64,000 bases of DNA from Candidatus Latescibacterota bacterium (GTDB taxonomy: Bacteria > Latescibacterota > UBA2968 > UBA8231). Within the stretch, counting starts at the first letter, position 1, and the number at the start of each line of letters is the position of its first letter. Location: positions 3,968,001 to 4,032,000 of the forward strand of contig OZ241362.1 in assembly GCA_965200315.1 (NCBI GenBank), read 5' to 3'. The notes under the pieces were generated by a model that searched no databases, was not told the DNA's origin, and was given only the letters and a program-made list of their open reading frames with translations. This document shows positions 54,839 through 64,000 of this stretch, piece after piece. A program made the translations under genes and the position numbers.

Positions 54839-55228
54839 ATGCGGTGGCTAAATACCGAAAACGCACCGGCGCTGACGCGAGCGGATAAAATCCTCGCGCT
54901 CGTCGTGGGCTTGAGTGCGATCGGGCTGGTACTTTACGGCCGCTATACAGCCGAAGCCGGCGGCCTGCTCATCGTCGAGTTGGCCGAGGCCGCGCCCGCC
55001 ACTCATGCCCTCTCAAATTACGGGGTCTTGCCGGTTGTAGGACCTTTGGGAGTGAGCGATATCGAGATCGGGCCCAAAGGCGTGCGCGTACTTTCCGCAC
55101 CCTGCGTCTACAAGATCTGCATGCGGCAGGGCTGGATGCAGCGAGCAGGCGATGTGGCTGTGTGCATACCCAATGGCCTAGTGCTGAGGATCGCTGGTGC
55201 CGCGCCCATAGACGCGATGATTCGCTGA
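54839..55228 (+). CDS. NusG domain II-containing (DUF1312-like) membrane-anchored protein
   Basis: RADKIL followed by a transmembrane helix; GPLG, PCxxKICxxQG, VCIPN motifs. Confidence 0.8.
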   Translation: MRWLNTENAPALTRADKILALVVGLSAIGLVLYGRYTAEAGGLLIVELAEAAPATHALSNYGVLPVVGPLGVSDIEIGPKGVRVLSAPCVYKICMRQGWMQRAGDVAVCIPNGLVLRIAGAAPIDAMIR

Positions 55229-55752
55229 TGTTTGCGCACCCTAGAGACGTGGCCCGTTTGGGGCTTATGGCCAGTGCGGCAATCGTGCTCTTCGCCTTTG
55301 AATCGCTAGTGCCCAAACCCTTGCCTTGGATGAAGTTGGGACTCGGCAATTTGCCGGTTGTGGTCGCGCTAGTGAGCTTTGGCGGCGGTCCGGCGTTGGC
55401 CGTTAGTACCATCAAGCTCGTAGTCGGCGGCTTGCTCAGCGGGGGGTTTGCAAGTCCGGCCTTTGTCATTGGCGGCGGGGCTGGCTTGGCGAGTTGGCTG
55501 GTCATGGTTGCGGTCCGCCGCATGGGAGCGCGGCTTTTCAGCGTCGTGGGCCTGAGCATCTGGGGCGCGTTGGCTCACCAGCTCAGCCAGCTCGCTCTCG
55601 CCGCTGGTTATATAGGCCACAGCGGTCTGTTCGCGCTTTTGCCGCTGGCCTTGTTCAGCGCTCTGGTGAGCGGAGGGGCGATTGGCCTGTTGGCTTGGTG
55701 GACCTTGGAACAATTGGAGAAAATAGGCTGGTTGGACCAAGGTCAGTTATAG
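55228..55752 (+). CDS. Gx transporter / heptaprenyl diphosphate synthase component I family membrane protein
   Basis: ES…PLPWMKLGLGN, GLSIWGALAHQLSQL motifs; TGATG overlap with the upstream gene. Confidence 0.85.
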   Translation: MFAHPRDVARLGLMASAAIVLFAFESLVPKPLPWMKLGLGNLPVVVALVSFGGGPALAVSTIKLVVGGLLSGGFASPAFVIGGGAGLASWLVMVAVRRMGARLFSVVGLSIWGALAHQLSQLALAAGYIGHSGLFALLPLALFSALVSGGAIGLLAWWTLEQLEKIGWLDQGQL

Positions 55753-55782: not shown

Positions 55783-57741
55783 ATGGACTTGCCCCAAAAG
55801 CCTACCTTGCAAACCGAGCCGGTCTTCAGCGCCAAAGCGCTGATGGCGGGCACCCTAGGGTCGCTGTGCATCGCCGTGGGAGCACCGTACGGCAACATGG
55901 TCATCCGCGGCTCCTACATGTCGATTGATTTCAGCGCCGCGGGTGCCCTGTTCCTTTTCTTCTTATTAACGGGCCTGTTCAACGCCTTGCTGGCGCGCTT
56001 CGTCGCCCCTATAGCCCTCGGTCGCTGCGAGCTCATCGTCGCGTACATTATGATGCTCACGGCCTCGGCCATCCCCACGATGGGCCTCAGCGAGTACTGG
56101 CTGACGATCATCACCGGTGCCCAGTACTACGCCACCCCGGAAAACGAGTGGGCCTTGCTCATCCTGCCGCACCTTCCCGAGTGGATCGCACCACAGGACC
56201 CCGAGGCGATCAAGTGGTTTTACGAAGGAGCACCGCGCACCGCTGGGGTGCCTTGGGCCGCTTGGAGCGGCCCGCTGTGCTATTGGGCCATTCTCATCGT
56301 AGCCCTGTACTTGGTGATGATCTCGTCTATGGTCATTCTGCGCCGCCAGTGGGTGGAGCGGGAGCGGCTAGTTTATCCGCTGGTACAAGTGCCCCTAGCC
56401 ATGGTGCAGAGCGGAGGTCGCGGAGAAACCCTAGGCCCTTTCTTCAAAAATCCTATCATGTGGATCGGCTTTGCCCTGCCCGTGCTCGTCAGTAGCCTCA
56501 ACGCCCTACACGCGTACTTCAACTTCATCCCCGCCATCCAGCTCGTCTCCTCGGTGCCGATCCTGCGCAACACCGTCAGCCTAATTTTCCGCCTGAGCTT
56601 TCCCATGGTCGGGTTCGCCTATCTAATCAACCTCGACATCGCCTTCAGCCTGTGGTTTTTCAACACCATCGCCAAGCTGATCCGCGGGGGGCTGGGCGTT
56701 TTAGGGGTTGGCAGCACCGAAAAGCTGGGCATCTACGGCGCTCCTAGCGAGCCAATTCTCGCCCACCAAGGGCAGGGAGCGATGATCGTCTTAGTGTTCT
56801 TCGGTCTGTGGATCGGCCGCGAGCACCTGCGCGACGTGCTGCGCAAGGCATTCCGGGGCGACAACTGCATCGATGACAGCGGCGAGATGCTATCCTATCG
56901 GGCAGCGGTCTTAACTTGGCTCGCCGGAGTCGCGGTGATGACCATCTGGCTGTGGCAGTCCGGCCTGTCGCTGTGGGTGGCCTTTTTGACCCTGATGCTG
57001 GCCATCCTTATTTTCGTCGGCCTAACTCGAGTGGTAGTAGAGGGAGGCGTGGCAGCGGCGGTCGGGCCGATGATTTCTTCGTCGGCTTTGGTCTCGGCTG
57101 TAGGCTCTTCGGCGATCGGGCCGGCGGGCATGGTGGGCCTCGCGTACACTTATGTGTGGGCGGCGGATATCCGCACGTTTGTCATGGCTTCCTGCGCGCA
57201 CGGTCTCAAGCTAGGCGAGGAGTTGGGGCCGCGGCTACGCCCGCTTTTTTGGTATATGCTGCTGGCGATTGTTGTCAGCATTGTCGGCTCGGTCGCAGCA
57301 ATTTTGTACCTCGCCTACGAATACGGCGGCATCAACCTCAACGCGTGGTTTTTTGGTGGTGGAACTCGCGCCCCTTTTGATTATATTACCACCAAGTTAA
57401 GCGCACCCACCGAGCCGAATATTGATGGCTGGATTCACACTTTTATCGGCGGGGGCATTATGGCCCTGCTCATGTGGGCGCGCCAGCAGCTCTTGTGGTG
57501 GCCTCTGCATCCCATTGGATACCCCATTGGTGCCGTATGGCTGATGGACCAGTTGTGGTTTAGCATTGCCCTCGCTTGGCTCTTAAAGTTGTTGGCGATG
57601 AAATACGGCGGTCCCAGTCTTTTTCGCCGGGCGCGTCCTTTCTTCTTGGGCCTAATCATAGGCCAGTTTTTCATCGCCGGGCTCTGGTTGATTATCGACT
57701 TTTTTACGGGCATGACCGACAATGTGGTCTTCTGGATCTGA
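55783..57741 (+). CDS. DUF6785/DUF6784-like polytopic membrane protein (putative transporter)
   Basis: 652 aa, largely hydrophobic; RRQWVERERLVYPL, WWPLHPIGY, KYGG…RPFFLGLIIG motifs. Confidence 0.75.
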   Translation: MDLPQKPTLQTEPVFSAKALMAGTLGSLCIAVGAPYGNMVIRGSYMSIDFSAAGALFLFFLLTGLFNALLARFVAPIALGRCELIVAYIMMLTASAIPTMGLSEYWLTIITGAQYYATPENEWALLILPHLPEWIAPQDPEAIKWFYEGAPRTAGVPWAAWSGPLCYWAILIVALYLVMISSMVILRRQWVERERLVYPLVQVPLAMVQSGGRGETLGPFFKNPIMWIGFALPVLVSSLNALHAYFNFIPAIQLVSSVPILRNTVSLIFRLSFPMVGFAYLINLDIAFSLWFFNTIAKLIRGGLGVLGVGSTEKLGIYGAPSEPILAHQGQGAMIVLVFFGLWIGREHLRDVLRKAFRGDNCIDDSGEMLSYRAAVLTWLAGVAVMTIWLWQSGLSLWVAFLTLMLAILIFVGLTRVVVEGGVAAAVGPMISSSALVSAVGSSAIGPAGMVGLAYTYVWAADIRTFVMASCAHGLKLGEELGPRLRPLFWYMLLAIVVSIVGSVAAILYLAYEYGGINLNAWFFGGGTRAPFDYITTKLSAPTEPNIDGWIHTFIGGGIMALLMWARQQLLWWPLHPIGYPIGAVWLMDQLWFSIALAWLLKLLAMKYGGPSLFRRARPFFLGLIIGQFFIAGLWLIIDFFTGMTDNVVFWI

Positions 57742-57757
57742 GAAAGGCGTTACAATT

Positions 57758-60700
57758 ATGCCTAAGTTCGCGATGCGGTGGATGGTCTTCGGCTGGATTT
57801 TGGTCGGCGCAGCACTGGCCCCCGCGGACGCCGGGGTCGATTTTGCCGAGCTGGCGCACACGGCCCCGGTCGAGCGCGTACAGCAAACGATGGACACCTT
57901 TGCCGGCTTGGGATCTAGAGTCGCCGGCTATCGAGGCGCCGAGCAAGCGGCCCAGATCGTACAGGAGCGCTTCCGCGCCATCGGCCTCGACGACGTCACA
58001 GTACACGAATACGATGTCTCTATTCCGGTCGATAAGGGCGGATTTCTGCAAGTAGTTGGCAGCGACGAACAAGTGCCAATCCACGGCCTGTGGCCCAACC
58101 TCGTCAAAACCTCGACGCTGCCCGAAGGCGGGATGCCCCGGCGCTTGATAGACGCTGGCGCGGGTGAGTACGCGGACATGGACGGCAAGCAAGTAGAAGG
58201 GTCTGTGGCCCTGATGGACTTCAATTCGGGCGACGCTTGGCTCAATGCCGCTTACCTCGGGGCGCAGGCCATCGTCTTTATCGAGCCGGATTCCACCGTG
58301 TACTTGGAGGGAGAAAAGAAGTTCCTCACCATGCCGCTCGACCTGCCGAGGTTCTGGGTCAATCGCCAAACCGGTCAGCACTTGCGTCACCAGTTGGCGA
58401 CCGAGGGCGAGCAGACGCTCCACCTACAGTACCGCATGGATTGGGAGCGGCGTCCCGCTTGGAATATCCTCGGCACGATTCCCGGATACGATCCCTTACT
58501 GAAAGAAGACGTGATCGTGCTAGAGGCGTACTACGACGCCATGTCAGTAGTGCCGGCCCTCGCCCCAGGTGCCGAGCAAGCCTCTGGCATTACTGCGTTG
58601 TTGGAACTGGCGCGCTATTTCCGTGCGAACCCGCCGGCGCGCACAGTCGTATTCCTCGCCACTTCGGCCCACCACTTGGGCTTGCGCGGGGTCGATGATT
58701 TCATCCAGCGCTACTTGCGCAAAGAGGACCCCTTTATCGAGCACATGCTGGTGAGGCGGGTCGTCGATGCTGCACTCGCACGGAACATGATCGCCCAAGA
58801 CGGCATTCACTACTCCATCGGCGAGGAGGAATTCACCGGTAAGGAATCCCTCGTGCGGGGCGTTGCCGAAGGGCGCACCAACTTGGCCGCGCACGTTGCC
58901 GACGCCGCGCTCGCCGAAGGGCTGCTGAGCCAAGAAGGAGGCGCATTACACGTCGCCGACGAGCAATTCAAAGATCGCGACGAACTGGTCGATGAGTTGC
59001 ATTCGGACGACGACTTGCGCCTCGCGCTCTACAAAACTTGGGTCGATCCCAAAGTCGATTCGCTCGCGGTCAAGCTCTTTATCAGCCTCGACCTTTCGTC
59101 GCAGACCGACGAGCTCGGAGTCTGGAACAGCAATACCAGTTTTTACTACAAGCGCTACTTCGCGCCCTTCGGCAAAAACTTCATGGGTTATGCGCGCAAG
59201 ATCAGCCGCGAGTTGGATTACCAGCGGCGCGACGTGCTAGTCAATGGCATCAGCCCCGAAGGCGGGATGAGTTGGCAAACCTTTGTACCAGGCGAAATAT
59301 CGGTCAACAGCGAATTGGTGTTGGCGACAGGTACGCCGGCGTTGGCCTTTGTCACTGTCAACGACGCACGTTTCCTCGTCGATACGCCCTTAGACCGGGC
59401 CGAGCACGTCAACTACGCCAATCTCGCCAAACAGATCCGGGTGCTCGCCGGCATGTTTGAGATGGCCTTTGAAGACCCAGAGCTTTTCCCGGACTTCAAG
59501 ATGCGCTTGCGCGACACGCTGCGCTCGCTGCGCGGCCGGACTATGGTCTTTCCGCGCCGCAGTATCATCCCCGACTTGCCGCGTGCAGACGCCGTAGCCG
59601 TGGTGCGCAACGGCAAGAAAAAGTCGTATAAAGGCGTGCGCGGCGAGTACTACGAAGTCGTCGATGATAAAGGGGCCTTTTACGTAAATCGGGTGCGGGT
59701 CAATAACGTGCAGATCGAGGGCTACTACATGGACCCGATCACCGGCCGCATCACCTACGCCCCCGACCGCGGCGTACAAGGCGACGAAAGCTACCCGATG
59801 CGGGTCTCCATGGATTGGCGCGACAAGCAATGGATGGTCATTCTCTTCCCCTGCGTACCCTACAACTTTTTCGATATCGTCGATCCACGCTATCTGACCA
59901 AGCTGTCCAACGTGCAGGTCTTCGACGAGACCAACAGCGCACCCGTGGAGTACGGTTATACCATCGGCGAAGGCCCTTCGGCCCAAAACGAGCCGGTCGG
60001 GGTGCTCTTCGCACGGCCTGGTTCGCACATCAAGATGGGGTTCGGTGCTGGCTTGCTGGGATTCCGCTCGCTCCTGCTCAACGCCACCAGCGTAACCGAC
60101 AAGGAAAAGGCCGAGGGCGAGGGCTTTGAGATCCGCCCTGGTACTTCCTTTGCCCGCACGACCTTTCAAGCTGCCCAAGATATGTGGAATCTCGACGAGT
60201 CGCGAATGCGCGAGCTGCGGAGCTTTGCCATTGAAAACCAGCGCCTCAACGACCTCCACTATCGCGCCGAAGCCGAGCTAACCCAAGCCGCCGAGGCTGA
60301 GACTGAGCAGCGCTGGGGCGATTTCGTGCGCCACACGCGCGCGGCCTTCGGGCTGGAGTCGCGCGCCTATCCAGACGTCAAATCCACCCAAAACGACGTC
60401 ATTCAGGGCATTATCTTCTTTATGGCCCTCGTCATTCCCTGCGCCTTTTTTACTGAGCGGCTCATTTTTACGGCGGCCACGATCCGCAATCAGATCATCG
60501 GCTTTGTCGGGGTTTTCCTAGCGATCTGGATCGTGCTGTGGCTGGTGCATCCGGCCTTTCAGCTATCCAATCCCTTCGTCATTCTGCTGGCCTTTATCAT
60601 CATCGCCTTGGCAGTACTGGTGATGTCGATCATCTCCGGCCGCTTTAACGAGCAGATGAAGAAGCTGCGCACCGAGGTAGCCGTGATCCACGACACGGAC

Positions 60701-62515
60701 GTCAGCCGCTCTTCGGCCTCGCTGACGGCCTTCCAGCTCGGGATTTCCAACATGAAGCGGCGCAAGACGCGCACGGTCCTCACCTTTACCACGCTCTTGC
60801 TGCTGACCTTTACGGTGCTCTCCTTCACCTCCATCCGCACGGGCTTGCGGTTCAATCAAATCAGCCGCGACAACGAGGGGCTCTACGAGGGCATCCTCAT
60901 CCGCAGCAAGGCGTGGAATCCAATGGAGGATTCAGTCCTCGAATACGCCCGCAGCAATTTCGGCGATCGGGCCGCGGTCGCGCCGCGCAGTTGGTACAGC
61001 AATAAAGCCAAAGCGCACATCAAAATAAAACACGGGGAAAAGGCCCATAACGCGCTCGGCGTCCTAGGTTTAGCGCCCGAGGAGACTCAAGTCACTCGGC
61101 TCAACCAAGCCCTAGTCGCCGGCCGCTGGTTTGAACCGGGCGAGGACAAGGCCTGCATCCTGCCCATCGACATGGTCAAGGAGGCCCATCTCAATGTCGA
61201 TTTGGCCGACGTTGGCCAAGCGCAAGTCCGGGTCTTCGGCGACTTGTTCACGGTGGTGGGCGTCATCGACTCTAAGCGCATGAAGGACCTCAAAGACCTC
61301 GACGACGAAATCTTGACACCGGCCGACTTCGCCGTCACTGGCGGTCAGGCGGTGCAGGAAATAGCCGAGGAAGAACAGCGCGAGAAACAAGGTCTGGAGG
61401 ACGCCAAGGTCGTCATCAAACCCTTCGTCCACATAGAGCCAGCCAACACCCTAATTATTCCCTACCACACGCTGCGCAACGTCGGCAGCGGCAACCCGCT
61501 ACAGTCGGTAGCCGTGCGCTTCCCCGAGGGCAGCGATGTGCGCGGCGAGGTCGAGGATTTCCTCTCGCGCCTCGCGGTAACGCTGTTCGCCGGAGTCAAG
61601 GAGGCCGGCGATGAATACATCAAAGTGTCGATCTATTCATCGCTGGGCATGACCTCCTTTTCCGGAATGAGCAATTTGTTCATCCCCATGCTGATCGCCT
61701 CGCTTATTGTGCTCAACACCATGATGGGTAGCGTGTACGAGCGCTTCCGCGAAATAGGCATCTATTCCTCGGTGGGCCTAGCCCCCGGCCACATCTCTTG
61801 GCTCTTTATCGCCGAAAGTTGCGTCTATTCGGTGCTGGGCGTGGTCGCCGGTTATCTCAGCGGCCAAGTAATCGCCAAAGTGCTCATCGAATTCGACCTT
61901 TTGGGTGGCTTCACGCTCAACTACTCCTCAGTGGCTGCGGTGCTCTCCTGTATGCTGGTGATGGCCGTGGTCATGCTCTCGACGATCTATCCAGCGCGCA
62001 AGGCTTCGCAAATGGCCGTACCAGACGTGACCCGCAAGTGGAAGCTGCCGCCGCCCGACGGCGACCAGTGGGATTTCGAGTTCCCCTTTACGGTCAGCGG
62101 CCACGAGGTCTTGGGCTTGAGCGTATTCCTCATCGGCTACTTCGACTCCTACAGCGAGGAATCCATCGGCACCTTCTACACCGACGGTGCCCAGCTAAAC
62201 CGCGAAGAAACGCCCAACGGCGAAGGATACATTATCGACATGAATATATGGCTGGCTCCTTTCGACTTGGGCGTCAGCCAACACGTCACCGTGCAGGCCA
62301 TGCCAGAGGCCGAACACAACATCTACTCAGTCGGCCTGCAAATCAAGCGACTCAGCGGCGAGGATGCCTCGTGGCGGCGGGTCAACCAGCGCTTTATGAA
62401 CGTCATTCGCAAACAGTTCCTCATCTGGCGCACAGTGGATGCCGAGGCCAAAGAAGGCTACCGCCAACAGGGCGCGGAAATTCTGCAAGGGCTGCGCAGC
62501 GAAGTGTCGGCGTAA
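57758..62515 (+). CDS. M28-peptidase-like ectodomain fused to a MacB/FtsX-like permease (~1585 aa)
   Basis: Signal peptide; PA-like and M28 fold (SRVAG, NILG, ALLELAR); transmembrane block; NMKRRKTRT; periplasmic domain; NTMMGSVYERFREIG…GLAP…YPARKAS FtsX motif. Confidence 0.82.
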   Translation: MPKFAMRWMVFGWILVGAALAPADAGVDFAELAHTAPVERVQQTMDTFAGLGSRVAGYRGAEQAAQIVQERFRAIGLDDVTVHEYDVSIPVDKGGFLQVVGSDEQVPIHGLWPNLVKTSTLPEGGMPRRLIDAGAGEYADMDGKQVEGSVALMDFNSGDAWLNAAYLGAQAIVFIEPDSTVYLEGEKKFLTMPLDLPRFWVNRQTGQHLRHQLATEGEQTLHLQYRMDWERRPAWNILGTIPGYDPLLKEDVIVLEAYYDAMSVVPALAPGAEQASGITALLELARYFRANPPARTVVFLATSAHHLGLRGVDDFIQRYLRKEDPFIEHMLVRRVVDAALARNMIAQDGIHYSIGEEEFTGKESLVRGVAEGRTNLAAHVADAALAEGLLSQEGGALHVADEQFKDRDELVDELHSDDDLRLALYKTWVDPKVDSLAVKLFISLDLSSQTDELGVWNSNTSFYYKRYFAPFGKNFMGYARKISRELDYQRRDVLVNGISPEGGMSWQTFVPGEISVNSELVLATGTPALAFVTVNDARFLVDTPLDRAEHVNYANLAKQIRVLAGMFEMAFEDPELFPDFKMRLRDTLRSLRGRTMVFPRRSIIPDLPRADAVAVVRNGKKKSYKGVRGEYYEVVDDKGAFYVNRVRVNNVQIEGYYMDPITGRITYAPDRGVQGDESYPMRVSMDWRDKQWMVILFPCVPYNFFDIVDPRYLTKLSNVQVFDETNSAPVEYGYTIGEGPSAQNEPVGVLFARPGSHIKMGFGAGLLGFRSLLLNATSVTDKEKAEGEGFEIRPGTSFARTTFQAAQDMWNLDESRMRELRSFAIENQRLNDLHYRAEAELTQAAEAETEQRWGDFVRHTRAAFGLESRAYPDVKSTQNDVIQGIIFFMALVIPCAFFTERLIFTAATIRNQIIGFVGVFLAIWIVLWLVHPAFQLSNPFVILLAFIIIALAVLVMSIISGRFNEQMKKLRTEVAVIHDTDVSRSSASLTAFQLGISNMKRRKTRTVLTFTTLLLLTFTVLSFTSIRTGLRFNQISRDNEGLYEGILIRSKAWNPMEDSVLEYARSNFGDRAAVAPRSWYSNKAKAHIKIKHGEKAHNALGVLGLAPEETQVTRLNQALVAGRWFEPGEDKACILPIDMVKEAHLNVDLADVGQAQVRVFGDLFTVVGVIDSKRMKDLKDLDDEILTPADFAVTGGQAVQEIAEEEQREKQGLEDAKVVIKPFVHIEPANTLIIPYHTLRNVGSGNPLQSVAVRFPEGSDVRGEVEDFLSRLAVTLFAGVKEAGDEYIKVSIYSSLGMTSFSGMSNLFIPMLIASLIVLNTMMGSVYERFREIGIYSSVGLAPGHISWLFIAESCVYSVLGVVAGYLSGQVIAKVLIEFDLLGGFTLNYSSVAAVLSCMLVMAVVMLSTIYPARKASQMAVPDVTRKWKLPPPDGDQWDFEFPFTVSGHEVLGLSVFLIGYFDSYSEESIGTFYTDGAQLNREETPNGEGYIIDMNIWLAPFDLGVSQHVTVQAMPEAEHNIYSVGLQIKRLSGEDASWRRVNQRFMNVIRKQFLIWRTVDAEAKEGYRQQGAEILQGLRSEVSA

Positions 62516-62528
62516 GGGAGGATAGCGA

Positions 62529-64000
62529 GTGCTCGGAAGAAAAAACAGAAACCCGAACCAAGAGATCGAAGAATATCGGGATCTAATGCAGGTCCCGGAC
62601 CACTTCGAGGACGGCTTCACGATCAAGGCCGTCCTCGGCGTGCTCTTCGTCGCTTTCATCATGGTGCCGGGCAATATGTACTTAAGCCTTATGATCGGAG
62701 GCTCTTTGGGGGCGGCGGCCGAGTGGGTGACCATCATCCTCTTCGCCGAAATCACCAAGCGCTCCTTCTCCTCCCTCCGGCGCCAAGAAGTCTATGTGCT
62801 GTTCTACGTGGCTTCCTCGCTGATTGCCGCTGAGACCGGCGCCTTTGAGGGCTTGCTCTACAACCAGTACTTGGTGCAATCGCCGGCGGCCAAGCAGTTC
62901 GGCATCACCAAGCTGATCCCCACTTGGGTGGCACCGCCGGCCGACTCTCTCGCCATCATTGAGCGCACCTTCCTGCACTCGGATTGGGCGATGCCGATCG
63001 TCCTCCTAGTCTTGGGGATGATCATCTCGCGCATCAACTGGTTCACTATGTCGTACGCGCTCTTCCGGCTCAGCTCCGACTACGAGCGCCTGCCCTTTCC
63101 CTTCGCGCCCGTAAACGCCCAAGGCGCTACGGCACTAGCTGAGACCACCCAAGGGGTTGAGACGTGGCGCTGGCGAGTATTTTCGGCCGGGGCGATGATC
63201 GGCTTGGTCTTTGGCACGATCTACGTAGCCTTGCCGGCCATTACGGGTGCGCTGCTGACCGAGCCGATTCAACTCATACCCATTCCCTTTGTTGACTTCA
63301 CGCAAGTCACCGGCAACTTCATCCCGGCCACTCCGCTGGGGTTTTCCGCGCACTTGGGGCCGATCTTCACCGGGCTAGTGGTCCCGTTCTGGGGAGTAGT
63401 CGGCACCTTTATCGGCGTGGTCGTCGCCTCAATCGCCAATCCGCTGCTCTATACTTGGACGCCTCCGTGGCGCGAGGACGAGGGGCCTTACCTGAACTTG
63501 TGGCAGCAAGGCATGGGCACGGTCGAGACCTTCTTCGTCAACAACGTCGATTTCTGGATGAGTTTCGGCATCGGCACCACCATCGCCATCGCCGTCATCG
63601 GCATCTATCAGGTATTTCAAAGCGTGCGCAGTGCTAGGGCCAACACCGATGAAGGCGAGCTCAAGCGCAGCTTCGCCACGCCCGCGGGCCGTGGCGATTT
63701 CCCTATCTGGCTGGCGCTGGCACTATACGCCGTGGCCACGGCTGGCCTGATCGGCATCGCCGCTTGGCTACTGCCGGGCATTTCCCAATTCATCTGGTTC
63801 TTCCTCTTTTTTGGTTTTGTATTCACGCCCTTTCAGTCCTTCGTCAACGCCCGCCTAGTCGGGATGGTGGGGCAGACGGTGGATATCCCCTTCGTGCGCG
63901 AGGCCACGATTATCTTCTCTGGGTACCGCGGCGTCGACATCTGGTTCATTCCGTTTCCCTTGGGTAACTACGGTGCCCAGACCATGAAATTCCGCGAGAT
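62529..64000 (+). CDS. OPT-like 'peptide transporter' polytopic membrane protein, runs off the right edge
   Basis: RBS GGGAGG then GTG 62529; MLGRKNRNPNQEIEEYRDLMQVPDHFEDGFTIKAVLG…; frame open to the window end; AAEWVTIILFAE, DYERLPFP motifs. Absent from the ORF track because there is no stop. Confidence 0.78.
   Translation, partial: MLGRKNRNPNQEIEEYRDLMQVPDHFEDGFTIKAVLGVLFVAFIMVPGNMYLSLMIGGSLGAAAEWVTIILFAEITKRSFSSLRRQEVYVLFYVASSLIAAETGAFEGLLYNQYLVQSPAAKQFGITKLIPTWVAPPADSLAIIERTFLHSDWAMPIVLLVLGMIISRINWFTMSYALFRLSSDYERLPFPFAPVNAQGATALAETTQGVETWRWRVFSAGAMIGLVFGTIYVALPAITGALLTEPIQLIPIPFVDFTQVTGNFIPATPLGFSAHLGPIFTGLVVPFWGVVGTFIGVVVASIANPLLYTWTPPWREDEGPYLNLWQQGMGTVETFFVNNVDFWMSFGIGTTIAIAVIGIYQVFQSVRSARANTDEGELKRSFATPAGRGDFPIWLALALYAVATAGLIGIAAWLLPGISQFIWFFLFFGFVFTPFQSFVNARLVGMVGQTVDIPFVREATIIFSGYRGVDIWFIPFPLGNYGAQTMKFRE

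Follow-up and report, generated by a model that had tools for sequence, protein, structure and literature searches.

A giant type VII ABC permease gene linked with genes for predicted OPT-fold proteins: an apparently undescribed membrane system in uncultured bacteria and archaea

Introduction

To our knowledge, the characterised type VII ABC systems are exporters or do their work beyond the membrane; with FtsEX and BceAB, the type VII fold serves to regulate partners. The OPT/YSL family (TC 2.A.67) includes barley YS1 (PDB 7wsr), in which Asp446, Asp490 and Asp494 take part in proton-coupled symport; all characterised OPT proteins known to us are importers. We know of no system that joins a MacB/FtsX motor with OPT-fold carriers, though every part has a known fold, nor of any described type VII system that has both OPT-fold carriers and an RRE protein. 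Known OPT/YSL proteins are proton symporters that do not need an ATPase, and YS1 is a proton-coupled elevator carrier (PMC9691689). Many, though not all, OPT/YSL members carry the NPG and KIPPR motifs (PMC3061005). A third point of reference is provided by the ECF transporters, the S-components of which dock on a shared module (PMC4820897, PMC7755397).

Here we describe three genes, A, B and C, at the end of a 64-kb window (the whole stretch of DNA that was analysed), with which a conserved membrane system begins that uncultured bacteria and archaea share and that has apparently not been described before. The genome of the window and its contig are designated G000 and C1. A search of the main texts of openly accessible papers found no publication on the system or on DUF6785, and the terms DUF6784, NOG87454, PF20581 and PF20580 did not occur in the portion of the literature checked.

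Results

Organization of the locus

Three co-directional ORFs were confirmed on the forward strand of the window. Gene A (55783..57741) encodes a polytopic membrane protein of 652 aa with DUF6785 and DUF6784 regions, gene B (57758..62515) a giant type VII ABC (MacB/FtsX) permease, and gene C (62529..64000 in the window, continuing to 64952 beyond it; G000:C1:4030529-4032952) a protein of 807 aa. These coordinates agree with the first-pass annotation of the window, which had described three large, co-directional membrane genes with gaps of 16 and 13 nt: the former separates A from B (57741 to 57758) and the latter B from C (62515 to 62529). The B frame is open from 57722, which gives 1597 aa, and the ATG at 57758 gives 1585 aa; B residue numbers used here count from the in-frame ATG at 57722. 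The operon of the window is surrounded by housekeeping genes. RNA read depth does not rank the genes, and the runs X5 and X7, with small word shares, represent other strains.

The same annotation had supposed that an ABC ATPase and other subunits may lie beyond the 64 kb. Three further genes do follow the edge: D (C1:4032954-4033949), a single-copy gene for a soluble protein of 331 aa, E (C1:4033873-4034322), a single-copy gene for a PqqD/RRE protein, and F (C1:4034289-4034909), with a weak PAP2 match. The ATPase, on the other hand, is not just beyond the edge, none being found among the ORFs of at least 60 aa after C; it is encoded about 480 kb from the A-B-C operon on the minus strand, where gene H (C1:4512258-4513028), for a LolD/MacB-type ATPase of 256 aa, lies beside gene G (C1:4513049-4513750), for a short FtsX protein of 233 aa. 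A cyanophycin-associated-type ABC exporter with DUF1854, 10 kb downstream, was considered as the motor and rejected: its membrane domain is already part of a fused exporter, and it was present in one of 80 loci around B.

The assignment of G and H to the system draws on genomes in which they are part of the operon. The two genes end it in 3 of the 20 loci fetched around D, G is present in 7 of the 80 loci fetched around B, and the G000 orthologs are 56-60% (G) and 74-77% (H) identical to the operon-encoded copies. Further, all operon ATPases group in a single clade (96/94) that excludes four other ATPases of LolD/MacB type in G000, and H has intact Walker A, signature, Walker B and H-loop motifs. 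On the basis of orthology, not adjacency, H is the predicted cognate ATPase of the system. G is single-copy and lacks a periplasmic domain in this lineage.

D has no Pfam family and its Atlas neighbours are all unnamed; it is found in 132 of 151 genomes of the phylum, nearly always as one match. No claim is made from a weak internal two-fold repeat in it (probability 4.9%, E 0.008). E matches PqqD/RRE at E 2.7e-11, which is below every NCBIfam PqqD cut-off, and no RiPP/PQQ-type modifying enzyme (maturase) family was found among the operon genes, for ORFs of at least 60 aa. F is near B in 23 of 80 loci and is probably outside the core of the system.

Domain architecture of gene B

Pfam profiles match B in its Peptidase_M28 (8.6e-10), MacB_PCD (6e-07) and FtsX (3e-15) regions, the last two over the cut-off. 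Together with structural models, these matches uphold the earlier description of B as a fusion of M28-fold, MacB and FtsX parts, with the amendment that the M28 domain is devoid of catalytic residues. The membrane segments of B comprise an N-terminal hydrophobic stretch and seven further TM-like segments. The first ectodomain (57854..59491) consists of PA and M28 folds without the catalytic set, showing AYYDA in place of AHYDS and SAHH in place of GAEE; an insert of about 100 aa within it is missing from six B paralogs. Histidine stands at the position of the M28 catalytic glutamate in 64 of the 68 diverse B sequences that were compared, and His317 of B is invariant. In the 43 bacterial rows of the alignment the next glutamate is never conserved (0/43), the first histidine is tyrosine in 39 and the last histidine position is aspartate in 42, and the first histidine is retained in 13 of 25 metagenome rows. 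An active M28 peptidase was thus rejected, as B has neither the catalytic glutamate nor the two-metal ligand set; judged by its sequence, the first ectodomain is a peptidase-dead PA/M28 domain.

The second ectodomain (59516..60391) has three parts: a transthyretin-like beta sandwich (residues 599-711), whose best match reaches Z 9.9; another beta domain (residues 712-810), with no match listed for it as modelled together with its surroundings; and a helical bundle. Three extra TM helices (60398..60646), starting near residues 893, 925 and 953, stand ahead of the MacB/FtsX core (60707..62017), which is made up of an elbow helix, TM1, a periplasmic domain and TM2-4. An FtsX fold of four TM helices in which TM1 is followed by a periplasmic domain is a feature by which type VII ABC proteins are recognized. 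The core carries the coupling motif VYERxxEIGIYSxVGLAP, and its model matches MacB, LolC/E and YtrF (Foldseek E 1.7e-10 to MacB 5gko; Z 14.6 to YtrF). The soluble C-terminal domain (62060..62440) is predicted to adopt a helix-grip (Bet v1/START/Aha1-like) fold, for which the scores of the model (Z 7.6-8.0) are middling and tied with KA1. There was no Pfam match to this tail and no significant match in a solved-structure sequence search; the helix-grip tail is a marker specific to the B family.

Genes A and C as distant paralogs

In line with its earlier label as DUF6785-like, A matches DUF6785 (E 2.6e-126) and DUF6784 (E 8.6e-31) in Pfam. C, which had been labelled OPT-like, matched no Pfam family and TIGR00728 (OPT) only weakly (E 2e-4, far under the cut-off), and the label is supported by a predicted structure: when modelled with AF2 (pLDDT 92), a C paralog resembles barley YS1 (Foldseek E 4.5e-11), with Z 20.8 and rmsd 4.2 over 552 aligned residues of 7wsr, the next match having Z 3.9. 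C is predicted from this model to have a YS1-like OPT/YSL fold, with YS core and scaffold; it also carries a soluble insert of about 145 aa. Pfam OPT (PF03169) is matched by 22 of the 75 C-family members (best E 5e-18), the A and C of the window being unmatched, and solved-structure sequence searches with A and C yielded no significant match.

The A-family and C-family profiles match each other over their full length (98.7%, E 1.8e-16, 579 columns). The motifs ERLVYP and ERLPFP, from which distant paralogy had first been suspected, share the same columns in this alignment, so that their likeness is more than chance. Profiles were needed to recognize the homology; a pairwise BLAST comparison of the two proteins was uninformative in the portion of the output examined. 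On this profile evidence A and C are full-length paralogs; hence, A may be expected to share the OPT/YSL fold of C.

Conservation, co-occurrence and copy number

The co-occurrence of homologs, which the first-pass annotation had proposed as a check, is observed widely: of 75 loci with sufficient flank, 59 have C as the next gene downstream of B, and 38 of 65 have A upstream of B at no more than 3 kb, these loci being related and not independent. The A-B-C order recurs on archaeal-type contigs, where the fetched flanks of the triplets showed no G, H, D or E, and one ORF of 2119 aa is a B-A fusion. The operon is broken up in many genomes, with D-E often elsewhere; B occurs without A or C in four loci (L102-L105), and C without B in two (L195, L196). 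Among 36 distant genomes of the phylum, A is present in 22, B in 22 and G in 19; each of the three is in 10 of the 18 genomes with a completeness of 90% or more and a contamination of 5% or less. None of A, B, D and G occurs in the 13 genomes of one family (f10), and across the Latescibacterota families these four genes are present or missing together.

G000 holds 35 copies of A, 7 of B, 5 of C and one each of D, E and G, and another genome (G033, 99% complete) has 21 A matches against one B-C-D-E-G-H operon. In a second phylum, exactly one B match is found in 39 of 41 genomes and A in 40 of 41; one B goes with 1-10 A matches, with 2-10 of them in 25 genomes, and one genome (G173) has A matches and no B match. 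Such matches only approximate copy numbers, and related genomes do not count as independent cases. The 35 A genes of G000 encode full-length paralogs and occupy about 70 kb of coding sequence. Twenty-eight of them lie more than 10 kb from any B or C, a multiplicity and dispersion that the earlier annotation could not see, and solitary and operon copies are intermixed in the tree. The 53 scanned neighbours of solitary A genes in G000 include oxidoreductases, PhyH, sulfatase and CBM6 as well as FlgD-Ig, FG-GAP, PPIase, TPR/PMT and restriction genes; an attempt to deduce a substrate from them failed, as this mixed set names no cargo. A glycoside hydrolase or lyase family is near 8 of 18 hand-picked archaeal-type loci, a figure without a background control; the sugar-enzyme count covers 60 of 91 neighbour ORFs and 18 of 56 archaeal-type loci.

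Discussion

A possible modular importer with a shared motor

It is very likely that these genes make up one functional system. Our leading reading, to which we give a probability of roughly 0.4, is a modular importer, with A-B-C in its core operon and a single ATP-driven core serving many carriers; it is supported by the fold of C, the B/G/H motor, the co-occurrence of the genes, the asymmetry of their copy numbers and the B-A fusion. In such an importer, B, the short FtsX protein G and the ATPase H would likely form an asymmetric type VII ABC motor, a B-G-H2 assembly like LolCDE. The dead PA/M28 head of B could capture cargo outside the membrane, and either its extra helices or its C-terminal domain could transmit the ATP stroke to a carrier of the elevator type, such that the motor drives or gates C and A. 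C would be the likely fixed partner of the motor, and the 35 A paralogs would be likely interchangeable, cargo-specific subunits, probably for oligosaccharides, that replace one another on the motor in the manner of ECF S-components. Both D and E, the latter an RRE protein, might be cytoplasmic adaptors. Action of the ATP motor on the carriers is, on balance, probable. Given import, sugar oligomers are slightly favoured as the cargo and peptides are rather unlikely. That known OPT/YSL proteins are proton symporters, and that characterised type VII systems known to us are engaged in export or extracellular action, speaks against shared-motor import. So do the loci with B but neither A nor C, or with C but no B, the archaeal-type triplets with no G, H, D or E in their fetched flanks, and the genome with A and no B match; the mixed neighbours of solitary A genes and the housekeeping surroundings of the window's operon also count against it.

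Alternatively, A and C could be ordinary ion-coupled OPT carriers, and B-G-H2 an ATP-driven helper that all carriers need and that does not power the transport stroke, be it a cargo-loading receptor, a sensor or an assembly factor. This is consistent with the proton-coupled elevator mechanism of YS1 and with the regulation of partners by FtsEX and BceAB through the same fold, and joint presence and absence together with copy asymmetry suit a shared helper as well as a motor. However, that B is fused to A in one case and lies tightly next to C in both bacterial and archaeal-type loci suggests a stoichiometric partner that stays bound, with which a helper is still compatible, and we regard the helper role as unlikely.

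Somewhat more doubtful is the export or maturation of peptides or envelope proteins, in which a peptide or protein from the cytoplasm would be recruited by E and D and moved by the OPT-fold subunits, and the nicalin-like dead M28 head with the transthyretin-like domain would be an outside chaperone, somewhat like the eukaryotic BOS complex. The PqqD/RRE match of E, the widespread D, nearly always a single match, and the several solitary A genes beside secreted FlgD-Ig, FG-GAP, PPIase and TPR/PMT genes would fit this scheme, yet no modifying enzyme family was found among the operon genes and the characterised OPT proteins that we know of are importers. Likewise, the M28 profile of B matches nicalin (E 8e-07), but true PA/M28 aminopeptidases far outscore it (E 2e-14), and the match of the transthyretin-like domain of B to human BOS complex chain 9c7v_B (Z 7.9) is tied with many unrelated transthyretin-like domains. 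Finally, that the genes are co-inherited and work apart, as stand-alone OPT carriers that multiplied in polymer-degrading lineages alongside an unconnected MacB-like system, would accord with the remoteness of 28 of the 35 A genes from every B and C and with the fragmented operons, but is highly improbable in view of the A-B-C order kept in bacteria and on archaeal-type contigs, the B-A fusion, the joint absence from all 13 f10 genomes and the joint presence in 39 of 41 second-phylum genomes.

If shared-motor import is true, the system would be the first type VII importer, would contain the first ATP-coupled OPT protein, and would be an independent invention of the ECF shared-motor design and a new way of powering nutrient uptake; if ATP coupling holds, it would be a new link between primary and secondary transport. 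Still more tentatively, it might represent a new class of primary active importer in bacteria and archaea, with a type VII motor, a dead-peptidase receptor head and elevator-type OPT carriers, up to 35 of them exchangeable. DUF6785 and DUF6784 gain a predicted fold and a set of partners. The system is widespread, with a low-copy core kept in at least two uncultured phyla, and this, together with the extent of the A paralogs, suggests that it is likely central to feeding or envelope building. Single-copy retention in genomes of 1-3 Mb fits a housekeeping role too.

Comparison with known systems

No characterised transporter matches the locus end to end, in keeping with the initial view of its composition as uncharacterised. 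With the type VII ABC systems (MacB, LolCDE, YtrEF, HrtBA, FtsEX, BceAB) it shares the MacB/FtsX core of B, a second FtsX-fold subunit (G) and a LolD/MacB-type ATPase with intact motifs (H). Unlike these, B adds about 950 N-terminal residues, comprising the dead M28/PA and beta domains and the three TM helices, as well as the helix-grip tail; G here is without a periplasmic domain, and OPT-fold carriers and an RRE protein accompany the system.

With respect to the OPT/YSL family, C has the predicted fold of barley YS1 over 552 residues and A is its full-length homolog, whereas identity to YS1 is 12-14%, the NPG and KIPPR motifs are absent from the A and C translations, and known members are self-sufficient proton symporters. 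With nicalin, nicastrin and NOMO (BOS, gamma-secretase), B has in common an ectodomain of M28 fold that is inactive and has a similar loop, V-x-P-x-L-x-x-G-A, and a transthyretin-like domain that comes after it; it differs in keeping a PA domain closest to Bacillus-type aminopeptidases and in being fused to an ABC permease, and neither a TMEM147 nor a presenilin-like partner was seen here.

The group II ECF transporters are alike in logic only, without shared folds. In place of S-components there are OPT elevator carriers of about 650 aa, in place of EcfT there is FtsX, and in place of EcfA there are LolD-type ATPases; neither carrier, permease nor ATPase of this system has the respective ECF fold, and the model of the C paralog matches the S-component 3p5n at only Z 3.0. 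The logic that the two have in common is that of many scattered membrane subunits as against one single-copy ATPase module.

Operon layout and transcription

The genome G000 is a single contig (C1) of 5.36 Mb, in which the window occupies C1:3968001-4032000; close homologs of its genes bear the label Candidatus Latescibacterota. The ORF read-out confirmed the three genes of the first-pass annotation with their coordinates and gaps of 16 and 13 nt: A, the DUF6785/DUF6784 membrane protein (55783-57741, +); B, the giant M28/MacB/FtsX fusion (57758-62515, +); and C, the OPT-like carrier, with its stop at 64952 in window numbering extended past the edge. On the same strand follow D (331 aa, directly 3' of C, without a Pfam family), E (a PqqD protein of 149 aa, E 2.7e-11), F (206 aa, matching PAP2 weakly) and a helicase-like gene (712 aa, RecD2 by eye), with no TM-like stretch found in D or E. 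Upstream of A lie a NusG domain II gene (54839-55228, +) and a membrane gene of PF07456 (heptaprenyl diphosphate synthase component I; 55225-55752, +), which ends ~30 nt before A. We take PF07456 proteins to be ECF S-component-like; a look-alike of the membrane gene (by eye) adjoins B in L072, a locus without A. A cyanophycin-associated-type ABC exporter with DUF1854 sits 10 kb downstream (C1:4043352-4046143, +; L002:1352-4143) and at two further loci in G000; in L194, an ABC pair resembling it is close to A-B-C.

Two metatranscriptome contigs with at least 99% identity, one from each of two runs of the same study, span 56682-66311 (from within A to roughly the end of E) and 56635-66984 (from within A to a little beyond F). 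These spans agree with one operon transcript; the genes flanking the operon are covered too, and contigs cannot prove a single transcript, its strand or its level.

Structural features of B, A and C

The N-terminal part of B aligns to PA-containing M28 aminopeptidases (YwaD, E 4.7e-10), in keeping with the M28-fold ectodomain proposed for it, with AHYDS replaced by AYYDA and GAEE by SAHH. His occupies the catalytic Glu position in 64/68 diverse B sequences; among bacterial rows, Tyr replaces the first His in 39/43 and Asp stands at the last His position in 42/43, and the first His is retained in 13/25 metagenome rows. Judged from these alignments, the head of B is a pseudo-peptidase with a conserved but altered pocket (E285, H317, D457 and D554, counted from the in-frame ATG at 57722). 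A model of residues 590-1590 (pLDDT 84) begins with a transthyretin-like sandwich (best Z 9.9), which is followed by another beta domain, a bundle of helices and three extra TM helices; its core bears out the claimed MacB/FtsX portion, matching MacB (Foldseek E 1.7e-10) and YtrF (Z 14.6, the rmsd being high across the two domains spanned), and its C-terminal domain is Bet v1/START/Aha1-like at middling Z (7.6-8.0).

Pfam assigns A to DUF6785 and DUF6784. When a profile built from 51 A sequences is compared with one built from 75 C sequences, the match covers 579 columns (98.7%, E 1.8e-16), and the ERL motifs, earlier offered as a clue to paralogy, fall in register. The OPT-like nature ascribed to C is supported by Pfam OPT matches, which the window's own C lacks, in 22 of the 75 C-family members and by a model made not of the window's C but of a compact 660-aa C paralog (C1:4687180-4689162; pLDDT 92, pTM 0.92). 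The model of this paralog resembles barley YS1 both in Foldseek (E 4.5e-11) and in VIA (Z 20.8, with 552 residues at rmsd 4.2; the next match scores 3.9). On account of this match C is predicted to have the OPT/YSL fold, as is A through its homology to C. Near its C-terminal third, C carries a variable soluble insert (residues about 556-700, ~145 aa in the window's C); the paralog at C1:374566 (L013:10566-13796) has a longer one with PDZ domains, and elsewhere in the family there are matches to WD40, Reg_prop or FGE-sulfatase domains.

Conservation of the neighbourhood

The survey of homolog neighbourhoods that the first-pass annotation had proposed found C directly 3' of B in 59/75, and A within 3 kb upstream of B in 38/65, genome loci with enough flank, mostly from one phylum. 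Scanning metagenomes with four archaeal-type C proteins yielded 56 loci, with B in 38 and A in 22; B lies within 3 kb of C in 30/36 with enough upstream DNA. The A-B-C order was found again in L175, L178, L180, L194, L200, L203 and L226. C homologs bear the source labels Bathyarchaeia, Brockarchaeota, Thermoproteota and Thermoproteales, and archaeal ribosomal genes (L226, by eye) and an eRF1 gene (L205) are present.

Within the Latescibacterota phylum, D occurs in 132/151 genomes. Among 36 distant genomes of the phylum, A and the B tail were each found in 22 and G, a short FtsX protein, in 19; in the best 18 of these, each was found in 10. None of the three was found in any of the 13 f10-family genomes, a joint absence counted as one event because it concerns a single lineage, and DUF6785 was found in 0/14 control genomes. 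In two other families (L065, L067-L069, L073, L074), D and E stand close together away from A-B-C and adjoin a LexA-like gene (by eye) that is oriented divergently. A D match at G126:C1:264247-265233 (-) lies within a 1706-aa open frame and may be fused to a neighbouring gene.

The order B-C-D-E-G-H, with H a LolD/MacB-type ATPase, is seen in 3/20 loci fetched around D (G033, G035, G044); in G035 and G044, A precedes it together with a TPR-like gene (by eye). The operon-encoded G, an FtsX protein of ~228 aa that lacks a periplasmic domain, is seen in 7/80 loci fetched around B. C-G-H recurs in several metagenome contigs, of which L216 and L224 also carry A, B and two ATPases. The expectation that an ABC ATPase and other subunits might lie beyond 64 kb is supported: D and E follow C, and G000 has a single G (56-60% identical to operon G) adjoining a single H (74-77%) at C1:4512258-4513750, which is ~480 kb away. 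This H groups with all of the operon ATPases and with another ATPase of G000 (C1:1047274-1048023, -; L156; 53-56% identity to operon H, no adjoining FtsX gene) in one clade (96/94) with intact motifs, the placement of that other ATPase being unsure because of its long branch. Two ATPases of this clade lie within the operons of L216, L223 and L224, and therefore a heterodimeric motor is suggested.

Proposed mechanism and cargo

The simplest reading is that A, B, C, D, E, G and the ATPases form one system. B, G and two ATPases would constitute an asymmetric type VII ABC unit with a receptor head, C its fixed OPT-fold partner, the A proteins exchangeable OPT-fold subunits, and D and E two soluble adaptors. 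We tentatively favour ATP-driven or ATP-gated import through the OPT-fold carriers (probability roughly 0.4), a reading in which motor-carrier binding, the direction of transport and the cargo are inferences. YS1 works as a dimer and is a proton-coupled elevator carrier (PMC9691689), and carriers driven by ions with an ATP-driven helper are a rather unlikely alternative.

Named glycoside hydrolase or lyase families (GH4, GH10, GH42, GH57, arabinofuranosidase C-terminal domain, GHL6, oligogalacturonate lyase) occur near 8/18 archaeal-type loci, hand-picked from the 56. GH4-like neighbours had been seen beforehand, 60/91 neighbour ORFs were scanned, and the count has no background control. The RRE protein E and the peptidase-derived head of B would point to peptides as cargo instead. 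Peptide or protein export with maturation is somewhat less probable still than ion-driven carriage. In PMC3061005, prokaryotic OPTs are predicted from gene context to import peptides, and one subcluster xylan oligosaccharides; M28 does not occur in its main text. The 53 scanned neighbours of solitary A genes in G000 are mixed and none names a cargo; several such genes (L231-L250) adjoin secreted FlgD-Ig, FG-GAP/ASPIC, PPIase and TPR/PMT genes.

In the literature searched, with subscription journals and supplements outside its scope, no paper was found that mentions DUF6785 or that brings together three of the terms type VII ABC, OPT, PqqD and M28.

Copy asymmetry and comparison with ECF transporters

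G000 encodes 35 full-length A, 7 B, 5 C and one each of D, E and G, with only 7/35 A within 10 kb of any B or C. Identity among 30 aligned A paralogs is 25-70% (median 37%), and solitary and operon copies are intermixed in the A tree. In G033 (99% complete), 21 A matches stand against a single match each to B, C, D and G. Of 41 genomes from the phylum to which G160 belongs (labelled Ca. Omnitrophota), 39 have exactly one B match and 40 have A, the exceptions being G191 with neither and G173 with A only; in 25 of the 41, a lone B is combined with 2-10 A matches, some being fragments.

B and A are both present in full, each with its complete set of Pfam domains, in a single 2119-aa ORF (G000:C1:1296121-1302480, -; L014), a natural B-A fusion. 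That the genes of the system work independently of one another is very improbable. Split or partial A copies lie at G000:C1:1447277-1449237, 1475967-1476575, 1486107-1486862 and 4868153-4868575, and the A family is therefore undergoing turnover. Tandem module duplications are seen in L123 (X-A-B-A-B), L143 (A-A-B-C), L189 (A-B-C-B) and L220, where B-C also has a weakly C-like gene and two further large genes of FtsX type beside it.

The copy pattern is similar to that of group II ECF transporters, whose S-components share one module (PMC4820897, PMC7755397); the two systems, however, have no common fold.
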